DNA from: Lepidogalaxias salamandroides
Lineage: Eukaryota
NCBI GenBank assembly: GCA_049190665.1
Contig: CM110852.1
Direction: 5' to 3' (one strand)
Length of the DNA stretch: 64,000 nt
The notes under the pieces were generated by a model. That model was not told the DNA's origin and did not search any database. It worked only from the letters and a program-made list of their open reading frames with translations. Below are positions 23,601-29,600 of the stretch, in pieces. Each line of letters opens with the position of its first letter. The first letter of the stretch is position 1. The translations under genes and the position numbers were made by a program.

Positions 23601-26600
23601 ATTAGCTAACGAGACATCAGCTGACTGACGGGGAAATGAAAACAAAGATGGACTAGGTTCACCATTACTTGTTGAACATGGAATGTTCTACTACTCTCAA
23701 AACGGCAGAAATGTTCAAAATGGTTGGTGACTCACGCAGCAATTTGATGAGAGCCGATGAATGGAAGTCGTACTTCAACAGCAGACTTCTCCTCTTGCTT
23801 CCTCATGAAGAGAGAGGAGGATCTGGTGGCCTGGTGGAACTCAGACTCCTGCACTTTGGGCACCCCCGCTGCTCTGACTGCTGGTACCCTGTTGGCGCGA
23901 TGACGACGCGAGGGAAGGGGAGGTGCTCTGTCACGCTGCATGCCCCAGGGGGCGCTAGAGAAAGGTTCTGATGGGGGAGCAGCACAATCAAATCGAAGAG
24001 GGAACCATTGTAAAGGGGGAGGAGGAGGAGGTGCGTCACGCTGCATGGGTGCACTACAGAGGGGGGCACTGCAGAGCATTTCTAATGGGGGAGCAGCACC
24101 AGGTGGTGGTGGGGGGGGTGGAGGTGCAGCACCCCCATGAGAAATGAGAAGGTTGGAGGGAAGGGCAGATGATTTGGCGCGATGAAGACGCGAGCGAAGG
24201 GGAGGTGCTCTGTCACGCTGCATGCCCCCGGGGGCGCTAGAGAATGATGGGGGAGCAGCACACATCTCGCTAAATGGTGATATGAGCACGGACTCAGCCA
24301 GAGGAGCCGTGGTAGGGATGAGGCCAAAGGATGGAGAAGGATAATGTGCACCACTTGAGTTAGTTGCTGGTGGTGGGGAGGGTGGAGGTGCAGAACCATA
24401 TACAGGTAAACTTCTATATATATTTCCTCCGCTTTCCTGCGCTGCTCCAAATAGAAACCCATTGTTGGAGGGAGGGGCAAGGAAACATTGTGAAGGGGGA
24501 GGAGGAGGAGGTGCGTCACGCTGCATGGGTGCCCAGAGGGACCAGGGGGCACTACAGAGCATTTCTAATGGGGGAGCAGCACCAGGTGGTAGTGGGGGGG
24601 GTGGAGGTGCAGCACCCCCATGAGAAATGAGAAGGTTGGAGGGAAGGGCATGGGGAGGTGGTGGTGGTGGGGGGGGGGGTGGAGGTGCAGAACACGGGGC
24701 GAACACGGGGAGTTGGGTCACGGGGGCTCCCTGTGTGCCGAGGATTGCAGAAAACTCAACCCTCAGGTCACTCAAATTGGGTGAAATGGCACCGTAGCAC
24801 ACCGTAGGCACCGTAGCACCGTCCTCACCGTACACCTTGTCAATTTCCATCTCCCAAGTGCTGCGCCTTCTTTTTCCTTTACATTGTATTTCATCGAGGT
24901 GCTCCTCCTCTTCCTCCCCCTCTTCCTCCCCCTCCTCGTTCCAACCCATGCAGCGCAGGAAGTCTTCTTCTTCTTCTGCAATTATTTTGATGACTGTGAG
25001 CTGCTCTGGACGTTGCGGATCCTGGGGTAGACACGAGGAGCAGGGATCATTAACAATATACTCCAAAAAGGGTGGTGTAGTGGTGTTTGACTCCCAGCCG
25101 AAAGATGCTCCAACCCCAATCTCTGAAGTCAATCAAGATCAGTTGATCAAGATGCCCAAGCCAATCCTTACTATGGATTGATTACAAAGCGGTCAATACT
25201 GTGAAGATAATAACATATGTTTGTGTCATAATGGGCGTTAATCTGTGATGAACTAACTAAATGAACTAAACAATCATTTGACTAACACAATACTGCCGCA
25301 CTAAAATACTACGAGTGCCTGGATTGCTTATATATGTGATGGCCTGGCTGCATGTTTATAGTACCACATGCAGGTCCTTGTTTGTGTGTCGCGATTTTAT
25401 GTTTTGCAGCATGTTTTTGTATTTAGTAGAATGTGTTTTTGTGTTTTGTAGTATGTTTCTTGTAGTATGTCTTTTGCAGTATGGGTTTTGTTGTATGTGT
25501 TTTTATGTTATGTAGTACGTGGTATGTGTGTTTGGTAATGTAGCACATAGTATCAGGTGTCTTTTTCAAAAGAGGAGCTTAACCTCAATGAGACTGTATA
25601 AATAAAAGTTCAATAAAAATACAATAAATATGAGCCAGTGCTCCGTTCTCATAGTCTGATGACCGCTCTTGTGCCAGTTTGTGGAGTAACTGTAAAAACA
25701 AACAAACACACACACACACGATAATATGACCATATAAATATACAGTATAATATGATAATGGACACAGTAGGGTTGGGCCAGTTGCAGAGGGTTGCAGAAA
25801 AACAGAGTGATTGTTTGTTAGGGTTTGAATCTGTATTTTGTCCCACCTGGGTGCCCCTTGTTGAAGCAAGACCAGAGAACCATGTTTCAGGCCTATTCCA
25901 CTCGAATTGGGTAAAACATTCCCACAATGATCTCTCACCAAAACCGTTGACATGTTGACGTAGAACTCCTCGTCCTCCTCGTCCTCCGTGTCCTCTTCGT
26001 CCAATTCGTCAATTTCCATCCCCCATCCCTCATGGAGGTGCTCCTCCTCTTCCTCCCCCTCCTCATTCCAACTCATGTAGGGCAGGAAGTCCACATCTTC
26101 TTCTGCAAGTATTTTAGCAATGTCTGTGAGCTCGGGCTGCTCTGGACGTTGCGGATCCTGGGGTAGACACGAGGAGCAGGGATCATTAACAATATACCCC
26201 AAAAAGGGTGGTGTAGTGGTGTTTGACTCCCAGCCGAAAGATGCTCCAACCCCAATCTCTGAAGTCTACATGTAGTTGATTAAGATGCCCAAGCCAATCC
26301 TTACTATGGATTAATTACAAAGCGGTCAATACTGTGAAGATAATAAGATATGTTTGTGTCATAATGGGCGTTAATCTGTGATGAAGACTTACTAAACAAT
26401 CGGTGCTAAAATACTACGAGTGTCTGCATTGCTTGTATATGTAAAGGAGTGATGGCCTGGCTGCATGTTTATAGTACCACATGCAGGTCCTTGTTTGTGT
26501 GTCGCGATTTTATGTTTTGCAGCATGTTTTTGTATTTAGTAGAATGTGTTTTTTTTTGTATGTTTCTTGTAGTATGGGTTGTGTTGTTATGTAGTAGTGT

Positions 26601-29600
26601 AGCACATAGTATCGGGTTTCTTTGCAAAAGAGGTGCTTAAACTCAATGAGACTGTATAAATAAAAATAAATAAAATAAATATGCGTTTTTAGTAGTGTGT
26701 TTGTGTAGTATGTGTGTAGTAACCCTCTCTTCGATGGCCACAAAGCTGGTGAACTGAGACAGGATGGAGAACTCTTTGCTCAGCTCAATGATGAAGGACT
26801 TAAGCTCCGCCTTCTGGCCCTGGAAAAGCAACGTTAAATGAAAAGCTGAACAAAACCTACACAGGATAATATTCATGTCATACATATGTTACTGTATGCA
26901 TGCATGCACACACACATACACCCACAGCACTGTAGAACATGTAGTGCTTTGGTTGACAAAGTGACTATAAACATGACTATAAAAGTACTATATATATGCA
27001 GTCCACTACGACCACACACACACCTCATGCTCGGCTTGGCTGAGAGCCAGTGCTCCGTTCTCATAGTCTCTGATGACCGCTCTCGCCGCCAGTTTGTGGA
27101 GAAACTGTAAAAACAAACAAACACACACTCACACGATAATATGACCATATAAATATATAATATGATAACAGACAGTAGGGTTGGGCCAGTTTCCGGTTTT
27201 ACCGGTGTCATACAGTCTGCGATCTTACACCGCTTTCATTTTATACACACGACTGTACTGGCATTTGTTATTATGAGATGGTCTGGCTGTGACGACTCCC
27301 AGGCTCTCCCTGCTGGGCGGTTATGGTTGAGTTTCTATTTGTGCTTGGTTTATCTTTTTGTTCTCGTCCAGCAGGTGGAGTCTGGGAGGGTCGTCCTGAT
27401 CAGGTGCACCTGTCTGACCAGGTGCAGGGGTGCCTGATTATAAAAGGCCTGGTCCATCAGTGTCTCTCTCCCCAGGAGCACCATTTTGTTAGATGTTGCT
27501 TTGTCTTTCTGTTCACACCATACAACACCTACACTCACCATACCGTTGTCCTTTCACCCATGCACTACACTACACCACTGATATACACTGATCATCACAC
27601 CTCATAGTTATCATTGTTTATTCTTCTTATAGTTTACTTATGTAATAAATATTGTTGAATCTTGCTGTGGCCGTGCGACTGTCTCCTTGTTGCGATCCTA
27701 AAGCGAGCTGGGTCGTAACACTGGCAAAATACAAAATATAGTTAAATGGATTAACTTGTATTGTACTATGCAACGTGATGAATATAATATATTCATTCAT
27801 AAACTGAGCTACTAGTTGCATCTGTGCGCTACTTTAGAGTTCGTTAGAAATGCAGGTTGGGATGAAGGGATCAAATTTAAATTAAAGGTCGTCGGGGGAC
27901 TCCATGTTGTTTTTAAACATACATTTTTAAATATTTGATGAGCCTATAGCCTTATGTAGCCTAGACTGATGCTACTTTTAAGGTTGATAGGACACAGTGC
28001 TATTTATCACACTCTTTACACACATGGGGCGATTCTAGGATGTTTTAAATGGGGGGGCCCAGGGGGGACCAAGCACCAGTCAGGGGGGCCCATGGGAAAT
28101 CAGAAAATTATATCAGAAATAAATACTTTGACTTACAATACATTGGACACGATTTTGGGGCTCTTGTGCATTAGTGCCCTAATACAGGTGGTATGACATG
28201 ACATGCGGTCTCCATTGTGATCCAATGGCATTGGGCATTTACTGATTGACAGCACTCTAGCCCAATGGTGTTGAGGGGGCACGAGGGGGGGCCTATCACA
28301 TTTCAGCGGTGGCTGGTGGCACCCCACGTGCCTCTTCTAGACACGCCCCTGTATATACAGTACAGGGTTCTCCCCAAACAATGTACTACACCCAGTACGG
28401 TGTAATAAGACACCAGTGTGTATGGAGGAAAAAAACATGCTCAGAGTTTGCAAGAGCATGGTGCTATGATAGGGCTTAGTGGTAGAGGCTTTTTGGGCCT
28501 AGTAGAATGAGCCGTAGGTAGGCAGTTGTCGTGGCAATTTCCAGATTGGATATTGCGTCTAAGGACAAGTGAGACCTAATAATTAAAGTCGAACACAATA
28601 CTTGGAGAAAATCAAAAGGGTTTAATGTGTACACATTAGTCTCATCTCTAGCAGAATGAGCCCTGAATGATCAGGACGCTGGATATTTAAAGCCCTCCTA
28701 CACAGGAGGGGGTCTGATAAGACATGACAACAGTTGCATCAGTATAAGACAGAGACACTCAACAGACAGAGACAAGTGATGATCAAAGATAAACAAGGAA
28801 GGTCACGGAGGGTGCTAACGTTCAGGGAGAACCCCACTGAAGGTTTACCTAAGGTCTTCAGAGATGAACCAGACCTTGGGAATGGGTAGGCTAGACAACA
28901 GGATGCCCTTTATGACCTACAGCTAAGAGCTAGCCCCCCTGTTTTGCTTACGCTATACCATATCAGCACGTTAAATCACCCTGGCATGTGAGTGGACCCC
29001 GGACTTGGAGATGGCCAGGTTGTCTTGCTGTCAGAGGAGGAAGTCTTTTACGACCTACAGCTGCAAGTTAGGCCTCTATATGTGAGGTGAAGATAACTAA
29101 CCCTGCAACTAGTTAGTAGAACACAGTTAAATGAAATAGAACACAGTCAAATACAGATTTTTCCACCACACAGTAGAGAGAGCATTGTGAATGGAGGTCT
29201 AGTGGTAATAGGCAAATGGGCCTAGTAGCATGAGCCATAGGTGGGCGGTGGGCAAGAAAGCATGGAGGCCGATAAGGAAAGCGCTACGTACAGCACATTA
29301 CCAAATATAATGAGCAGCTGGTGAAGCTTGTGCCAAAATAACATGCATGAAATCAGAATAATAAATAGGCAGTTCTACTTTATATAAGGCCCACCCGATG
29401 GAGACGTTTTTTGGGTCTGCTATTCCGGAGAGCAGACATGCTCTGTTTTATTGCTGTTTTTTTACCTTAAGAAACGCAATAAACTGTTCGCATTAGACGG
29501 CATCTGATTTCCAGTGTTTTTCTTATAATATTTGTGTGTCCGTGGCATGTGGGTTCTGGAGAGGATAATAGCATGCATTGTTAAATGTTGTGATAATCGC

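Follow-up and report, generated by a model that had tools for sequence, protein, structure and literature searches.

The window analysed here is a stretch of 64,000 nucleotides from contig CM110852.1 of the Lepidogalaxias salamandroides assembly GCA_049190665.1. On its minus strand it carries a gene that we identify as PARP4 (vault poly-ADP-ribose polymerase), spanning at least 43500-19500, and within this gene a block of 1,408 bp has been duplicated in tandem. A first-pass annotation had proposed an intragenic tandem duplication at this locus, and our analysis confirmed the observation: the repeat is far beyond chance, one of the duplicated exons has no donor, and the other is open. The features that identify the gene are as follows.

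41893-42288, minus strand: PARP catalytic exon (PF00644, E = 2.3e-12, 47 bits against a cut-off of 26.7 bits)
40315-40542, minus strand: VIT exon (PF08487, E = 8.8e-14)
39178-39540: second VIT piece (Pfam search)
33868-33993 and 19559-19726, minus strand: further PARP4 exons (tblastn)
19499-20716, minus strand: C-terminal exons

The catalytic and VIT exons lie upstream of the duplication and the C-terminal exons downstream of it, all on the same strand, with VIT following the catalytic exon. The last exon (19726-19559) matches the fish fragment P0004 at 61% identity (E = 2e-16), and P0004 bears a precomputed match to PF26156 (PARP4_MVP-ID); hmmscan of the concatenated C-terminal exons and of P0004 gave zero matches, PF26156 included. 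The sole candidate exon submitted for a vWA domain (35518-35805) had no Pfam match, and vWA-like sequence was seen by eye only. A three-exon query retrieved, as the closest database protein, P0001, a partial sequence from the grenadier Coryphaenoides rupestris with 78% identity, together with P0004 and a 143-aa human-type fragment, P0002, which we take to be human PARP4. Searches of P0002, P0001 and P0004 against the window (tblastn) showed that the linker exons are homologous to the human-type KLAARALIRDYE...FTSFVAVEKR... and an 11-residue motif. The gene looks intact, and a reading frame must therefore be carried through the duplicated region.

The duplication is a head-to-tail direct repeat on the minus strand in which copy 2 abuts copy 1 with zero spacer. 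A repeat search was run on 23000-28500, the minus strand was read directly over 27300-23600, and the two copies were compared by piecewise alignments.

25783..27190, minus strand: copy 1, 1,408 nt; it opens with the last part of the upstream intron, carries the KLAAR, GQKAEL and acidic exons and closes with most of a short ancestral intron
24736..25782, minus strand: copy 2, 1,047 nt, shortened by a 361-bp deletion and many smaller indels

The homology begins in copy 1 with ACTGGCCC (27190) and ends with ...CTCTGCA (25783), and copy 2 ends with ...CTCGGCA (24736), 5 nt before an acceptor AG. With a slash marking the boundary, here as at splice sites below, the flanking sequences are CCGGAA/ACTGGCCC, CTCTGCA/ACTGGCCC at the junction of the two copies, and CTCGGCA/CACAGGGAGCC, with a microhomology of one A. 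The left breakpoint is situated within the intron preceding the KLAAR exon, and the right breakpoint within the short intron (~160 nt) that follows the acidic exon, 5 nt ahead of the intron's acceptor. The repeat search returned ungapped blocks of 131 nt at 99% (26136-26266 vs 25000-25130), 105 nt at 100% (26449-26553 vs 25336-25440), 80 nt at 94% (27088-27167 vs 25673-25752) and 112 nt at 97%, plus several shorter ones, and the E values from BLAST of one copy against the other were 4e-174 (main block) and 9e-45 (5' block). No third copy was found in the 64-kb window by BLAST of 23600-27300 against its whole length; the repeat is single and local, which argues for a tandem duplication rather than a dispersed element. 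A dispersed repeat or transposon as the source of the shared intronic block was rejected, given that the window holds no further copy and that a distant fish has part of this block in its intron.

The unit had originally been put at about 1.1 kb. The copies are spaced by 1,408-1,415 nt at the 5' end and by 1,113-1,136 nt further on, and the spacing drops to 1.11-1.14 kb because of the 361-bp deletion in copy 2; the actual unit is 1.41 kb (1,408 nt). The missing 361 bp correspond to copy-1 coordinates 27043-26683, and with them copy 2 lost the KLAAR donor, the adjoining 3' end of that exon and the entire GQKAEL exon (26819-26724), whose deletion had been recognized at first pass. The first-pass annotation counted two duplicated coding exons, and this holds for KLAAR and the acidic exon, while the unit originally held three, GQKAEL being the other. 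The exons of copy 1 are listed below; splice-site scores here and throughout were computed with a position weight matrix based on vertebrate consensus frequencies and serve as relative guides only.

27024..27104, minus strand: KLAAR exon, copy 1; 81 nt, 27 aa, phase 0-0; acceptor score 9.0, donor GAG/GTGTGT with score 8.6
26724..26819, minus strand: GQKAEL exon, present in copy 1 only; 96 nt, phase 0-0
25939..26157, minus strand: acidic exon 1; 219 nt, 73 codons, phase 0-0; donor TTG/GTGAGA

The KLAAR exon of copy 1 shows 89% identity to grenadier P0001, and the GQKAEL exon 94-97% identity to P0001 and P0004. Limits of 26040-26225 had been assigned to the acidic exon, and these had to be corrected: its true start is 26157 (acceptor ccccag/GAT) and its true end 25939 (donor TTG/GTGAGA), and the residues previously translated upstream of 26157 belong to the polypyrimidine tract, where the grenadier differs by indels of 1, 1 and 2 nt. 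The boundary is fixed by P0002 and P0004, which are spliced and run ...FVA(I/V)E(E/K)R straight into the acidic segment. The acceptor reads cgtgtctaccccag/GATCCGCAA, with the first exon base at 26157 in copy 1 and at 25021 in copy 2. Acidic exon 1 retains the 11-residue motif, which is conserved in human, tuatara and several fishes, and its ratio of nonsynonymous to synonymous differences per site (pN/pS) against the grenadier is 0.24. By these measures acidic exon 1 is under constraint and must be used in the mRNA.

Copy 2 is in a very different state, and its parts are as follows.

25633..25689, minus strand: KLAAR pseudo-exon, copy 2; acceptor intact (score 9.0), indels of -1 and -2, 3' end and donor deleted
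25022..25632, minus strand: copied intron between the GQKAEL and acidic exons; matches 26682-26158 in blocks that are 92-100% identical
24803..25021, minus strand: acidic exon 2; 219 nt to 24803, acceptor as in copy 1
24731..24802, minus strand: relic of the short intron, copy 2; 72 nt, with ~97 nt deleted and an ACGGTG-type repeat expanded; open, and in frame if retained

The second KLAAR copy had been described as frameshifted and lacking a donor, and the alignment bears this out (indels of -1 and -2, donor deleted, 25689-~25633). No donor scoring >=4 follows it until 25172, so the pseudo-exon should not be defined as an exon. A minus-strand reading frame that was said to run through it from 26202 to 25585 does exist, but it consists mostly of intron; the open frame reported for the second acidic copy and the Pro-rich segment is present, from 25132 down to 23732. 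The acceptor of acidic exon 2 lies inside the 131-nt block of 99% identity, in the same 14-mer as that of copy 1 and with the same score of 6.8, vs 6.2 for the acceptor at 24730, to which it lies upstream.

The coding content of acidic exon 2 has changed considerably, and its frame has been kept. The 291 nt of 25021-24731 are a multiple of 3 and stop-free, so that 97 codons are open into the Pro-rich exon; at 10-30% substitution, the simulated chance of remaining stop-free was 0.38-0.09 for the exon-1 sequence and 0.21-0.02 for exon plus intron. The alignable indels of exon 2 (-6, -3, +12 and +30) are multiples of 3 in four cases out of four; elsewhere in the repeat, in non-coding sequence and the pseudo-exon, the figure is 2 of 11 (Fisher p = 0.011). 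When exon 1 and the grenadier served as the reference, exon 2 showed the changes D>V, D>E, V>E, P>R and Y>C, one synonymous change and two in-frame deletions, whereas exon 1 on the same comparison showed only I>L and one synonymous change. The pN/pS between the two exons is 0.49 (small numbers), and exon 2 has gained a basic cluster, KGKRRRS. Complementary degeneration, in which the motif would persist in exon 1 and an ancestral basic cluster in exon 2 (RRRST, like SRRST in the grenadier), was considered and rejected, because the clusters are not homologous: the grenadier SRRST stretch aligns at the nucleotide level with GAGGAGTTCTACGT of copy 1, in a different reading frame.

Three donor candidates were found for exon 2, a strong one at 24829 that is out of frame and two weak ones, at 24803 and 24836, that are in frame. 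An imperfect ACGGTG-unit repeat was observed at 24770-24840 on the minus strand (TACGGTGAGG ACGGTGCT ACGGTGCCT ACGGTGTGCT ACGGTGCC). The ancestral donor motif ACG/GTGAG appears to have been multiplied in this segment, yielding several candidate donors in different phases. Substitution identity between the copies is ~92-98% in the intronic parts vs 70-79% in the alignable exon part. We also observed that the 131-nt and 105-nt blocks, at 99% and 100%, sit in a repeat that is otherwise ~5-8% diverged and next to an exon at 70-79%; this mosaic might reflect gene conversion between the copies or an accelerated change of exon 2.

The outgroup comparison used one species only, C. rupestris, through its locus L001. 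This locus is collinear with the window and contains the KLAAR exon, the GQKAEL exon, the intervening intron and the Pro-rich exon once each (L001 1144-2266). Its single copy agrees with the lineage-specific expansion that the first-pass annotation had offered as one alternative, and the comparison supports a duplication that is lineage-specific relative to the single available outgroup. The ENA contig L002 (which carries P0017), from a more distant fish, ends in the intron before the acidic exon. The following features of the window are defined by the comparison with L001.

25783..25938, minus strand: 5' portion of the short ancestral intron, which the duplication junction truncates ahead of the acceptor; ~80% conserved with L001 2122-2260
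23736..24730, minus strand: Pro-rich long linker exon; acceptor cacag/GGAGCC in phase 0, donor GC/GTGAGT; acceptor homologous to L001 2266

The short ancestral intron, with its donor in copy 1 and its acceptor just past copy 2, had been overlooked at first pass. The ancestral length is 161 nt, and the window shares the donor GTGAGAGATCAYTGTGGGA and the acceptor ...CTGCAYACAG with the grenadier, where the sites read ACG/GTGAGAGATCACTGTGGGA and ...CAACCCTCTGCATACAG/GAC, both matched in the window. In the window, the donor (25939/25938) lies in copy 1 and the acceptor cacag/GGAGCC (24730, phase 0) directly after copy 2; since both are kept and are phase-compatible, joining them would remove copy 2 completely. 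In the grenadier, in-frame stops appear if the short intron is read through, and ~490 codons are open from the acceptor at L001 2266 (phase 0). Between copy 1 and the grenadier, the intron differs by indels that are not multiples of 3. The possibility that it is an in-frame exitron was rejected on the basis of its ancestral 161 nt, the in-frame stops in the grenadier and these interspecies indels.

The following mRNA paths through the region were considered.

Path A, minus strand: exon 1 donor 25939 to 24730; in frame, copy 2 all intronic
Path B1, minus strand: exon 1 to exon 2, then read-through; in frame, +97 aa
Path B2, minus strand: exon 2 ends at 24803 (donor score 5.6); in frame, exon of 219 nt, +73 aa
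Path B3, minus strand: exon 2 ends at 24829 (donor score 8.9); premature stop
Path B4, minus strand: exon 2 ends at 24836 (donor score 4.0); in frame
Path C, minus strand: exon 1 skipped; in frame
Path D, minus strand: KLAAR pseudo-exon included; stop at 25587-25585

All paths through exon 2 are in frame except two. Path C is unlikely, since exon 1 is conserved and must be used, and a Pfam scan of the linker protein that path A would produce gave no match.

We consider the chances about even that the duplicated acidic exon 2 is still translated along path B, at least as a substantial isoform, and we favor this explanation of the locus. The argument for it is that the frame has been kept despite heavy remodelling. 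In this scenario, the fresh duplication would have added 81 + 96 + 219 = 396 nt, all in phase 0-0, making an in-frame internal repeat of 132 residues possible. The later 361-bp deletion would then have disabled the copy of the conserved, structured part and left a copy of the acidic low-complexity linker; the loss of the second KLAAR donor and of the second GQKAEL exon can be read directly from the DNA. What remains would be a chimeric intron, 25938-25022 (917 nt), with the donor of the ancestral short intron, the duplicated acidic acceptor and the dead KLAAR pseudo-exon inside, and the mRNA would run in the order KLAAR, GQKAEL, acidic exon 1, acidic exon 2. Exon 2 would enter the Pro-rich exon either with the 72-nt relic retained and read through or after splicing from 24803, placing 73-97 extra acidic and basic residues in the disordered linker that connects the vWA region to the MVP-interaction domain. 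Exon 1 would supply the conserved 11-residue motif, and exon 2 would be free to diverge in sequence, though not in reading frame. A search of the protein collection for a PARP4 protein or transcript of the same species, with the three-exon query and a 205-aa junction-spanning open reading frame, returned only the grenadier protein and genomic open-reading-frame fragments of other fishes.

Several observations weigh against translation of exon 2. First, it has lost 4 of the 11 conserved-motif positions, and its lineage-specific changes are nearly all non-synonymous; a neutral relic would also show motif decay and mostly non-synonymous changes. Second, the indel test comprises four events only, one of which lies within a triplet-periodic GAG/GAA run. 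Third, the strongest donor of copy 2, ACG/GTGAGG (24829, score 8.9), is out of frame and leads to a premature stop, and the splice-site scores themselves are relative guides from a consensus weight matrix. Fourth, the ancestral pairing of 25939 with 24730 gives a canonical in-frame path A that leaves copy 2 intronic. A simple canonical splice path skipping one copy was what the first-pass annotation had named as speaking against its proposal, and such a candidate path is indeed present in the DNA.

Path A draws support from the decay of the motif in exon 2 and from the strong donor being out of frame; under it, copy 2 would be wholly intronic, the 161-nt intron would have been inflated to 1,208 nt and the protein would be unchanged; we regard this as a real possibility, if a somewhat doubtful one. 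The enlarged intron would then carry two pseudo-exons, and the open frame of copy 2 would be a leftover. Consistent with this explanation, the donor and acceptor are the conserved pair found in the grenadier, both in phase 0, the KLAAR copy is dead and the GQKAEL copy deleted, the exon 2 motif has decayed with mostly non-synonymous changes, and the best copy-2 donor is out of frame. However, a neutral relic with at least four indels, an 87-nt deletion and a repeat expansion would be expected only rarely to stay open and in frame at both ends, and the joint chance of the kept frame is roughly 1e-3 to 1e-2. In addition, the acceptor at 25021 (6.8) equals the functional one, is no worse than that at 24730 (6.2) and is located upstream of it.

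Alternative use of the two acidic exons, which might be mutually exclusive, or with exon 2 as a cassette, or with exon 2 as a frame-shifting poison exon that down-regulates PARP4 via 24829, appears improbable. Such regulation would fit the identical acceptors of the two exons and their shared length of 219 nt in phase 0-0 (taking exon 2 to 24803), as well as the in-frame outcome of paths A, B2 and C and the premature stop of B3; however, the sequence contains nothing that enforces mutual exclusion, and skipping exon 1 would drop a motif conserved from fish to human. An assembly artefact, which had also been raised at first pass and would be a false tandem duplication such as haplotypes placed in series or a mis-join in repeat-rich sequence, is very improbable: tandem repeats abound in codfish-type genomes to an extreme degree and are a recognised cause of assembly errors (PMC5241972, PMC6868369), and the window holds other large repeats, but it has no Ns or gaps, the clean breakpoint lies in unique sequence and shows 1-nt microhomology, and the copies are set apart by the 361-bp deletion, >10 further indels, ~5-8% intronic and >20% exonic divergence, far beyond allelic differences. 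A scan of metagenome contigs gave no match to the junction 24-mer or to a conserved exon 27-mer.

Intragenic tandem exon duplication in animals has reportedly been surveyed by Kondrashov and Koonin in 2001, by Letunic et al. in 2002 and by Gao and Lynch in 2009. As in those cases, a head-to-tail block of phase 0-0 exons with flanking intron lies within one gene, acceptor and frame have been retained in the duplicated exon, and the two copies have diverged to unequal extents. The present case is unlike them in that one deletion of 361 bp later destroyed two of the three duplicated exons, and in that the surviving exon, its original donor context gone, now runs on in frame into the next exon. 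Intron creation by tandem genomic duplication is known as the Rogers model, the classical mechanism of which uses an AGGT in an exon. The creation or enlargement of introns by tandem duplication is established for the potato RdRp gene (Ma et al. 2016, PMC4974935) and in Drosophila (PMC2891723). As in the potato gene (PMC4974935), the duplicated segment here crosses exon-intron boundaries and the splice signals of the intron are inherited from the parent. Unlike cases of intron gain, path A would only enlarge an existing intron, with no new position in the coding frame. Under path B, there would be a new chimeric intron of 917 nt between the exon copies, and the AGGT-in-exon mechanism would not be involved. 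The intron 25938-25022, with inherited donor and acceptor, is available in the DNA and would be used in the mRNA along path B.

Like vertebrate PARP4, the gene has its catalytic exons, conserved linker, Pro-rich linker and C-terminal exons in the expected sequence along the minus strand; its linker is distinctive in having lineage-specific duplications, the 1.4-kb one and a unit of ~480 nt in the Pro-rich exon. No paper that treats PARP4 and exon duplication together was found in a full-text literature search. If exon 2 is expressed, the locus would provide a clean and fairly young example of an intragenic duplication edited by a later deletion, in which only the disordered-linker part survives, the structured copy is disabled, and all intron splice signals are parental. 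No long-standing question about PARP4 or vaults is touched, and a duplication of this kind is a fairly ordinary, already known phenomenon.

Prolific tandem repeats have been described in codfish genomes (Torresen et al. 2017, PMC5241972; haddock, PMC5894186), and tandem repeats are known to cause assembly and annotation errors (PMC6868369). The locus resembles codfish genomes in being full of short tandem repeats, (GT)n among them, and in that the copy-2 donor region was remodelled by an ACGGTG-type repeat; unlike the short tandem repeats of codfish, the feature described here is a segmental duplication of 1.4 kb. The Pro-rich exon has an internal in-frame duplication (24650-24481 vs 24167-24001 at 93%, 24266-24174 vs 23989-23892 at 90%) with a unit of ~480 nt, one copy ~200 nt shorter than the other, and repeated peptide modules. 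The repeats of the grenadier linker differ: a 54-nt unit occurs five times (SSAPSGVEHAMPRPLEDL) and a 12-nt unit ~39 times, encoding (S/P)VSQ. Since the lineage-specific repeats differ between the window and the grenadier, the PARP4 linker is, on the present comparison, a repeatedly remodelled region.

A separate small duplication of the acidic-exon acceptor and exon start was observed in the grenadier at L001 1674-1956 (1674-1711 vs 1885-1922 at 97%, period 211 nt; 1781-1811 vs 1926-1956 at 90%, period 145 nt). Its second copy has a 66-nt internal deletion, (GT)n lies between the copies, and the donor is derived from (GT)n. The deposited grenadier model splices this small duplication as a new 100-nt intron (...AEEEDE/DPHFYMALN...), which makes it a candidate for intron gain by tandem duplication. 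We think it unlikely that the acceptor and 5' part of the acidic exon form a recurrent duplication hot spot in gadiform fishes, with exon 2 of the window expressed as an isoform or a poison exon; if this were true, it would imply a PARP4 isoform of altered linker or localisation in which the motif is swapped for KGKRRRS, or a poison exon via 24829. Together with the small grenadier duplication, an expressed exon 2 would illustrate linker remodelling of conserved proteins in repeat-rich, codfish-type genomes.

The deposited grenadier model CRUP_009341 (L001 403-2309) ends in the wrong frame (...RLCAGEGGKREKNL*). When the donor ACG/GTGAGA (2121/2122) was joined to the acceptor at 2266, ~490 codons were open through both repeat arrays (2266-3735), and the grenadier PARP4 has probably been split into two gene models. 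For annotation, the locus serves as a warning: five in-frame paths are open to gene predictors in the window, and the grenadier model is truncated and mis-framed.

Other repeats were observed in the window. Long open segments at 31917-31179 and 44988-44590 (minus strand), within PARP4 introns, resemble the C-terminal regions of LINE-type reverse transcriptases, as judged by eye from the list of open reading frames. Downstream of the PARP4 3' end, a ~6-kb segmental duplication (1-5995 vs 12004-18320) shows 94-98% identity with a period of ~12 kb; both copies bear minus-strand open frames with Pro/Ala/Gly repeats of the PAGQPDTPPAGQPD type, and it could represent a duplicated gene or an assembly duplication. 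Minisatellites are present at 10365-10964 (period ~23 bp) and 49434-50456 (~48 bp), with 90-96% identity between units, the second of them upstream of the PARP catalytic exons.

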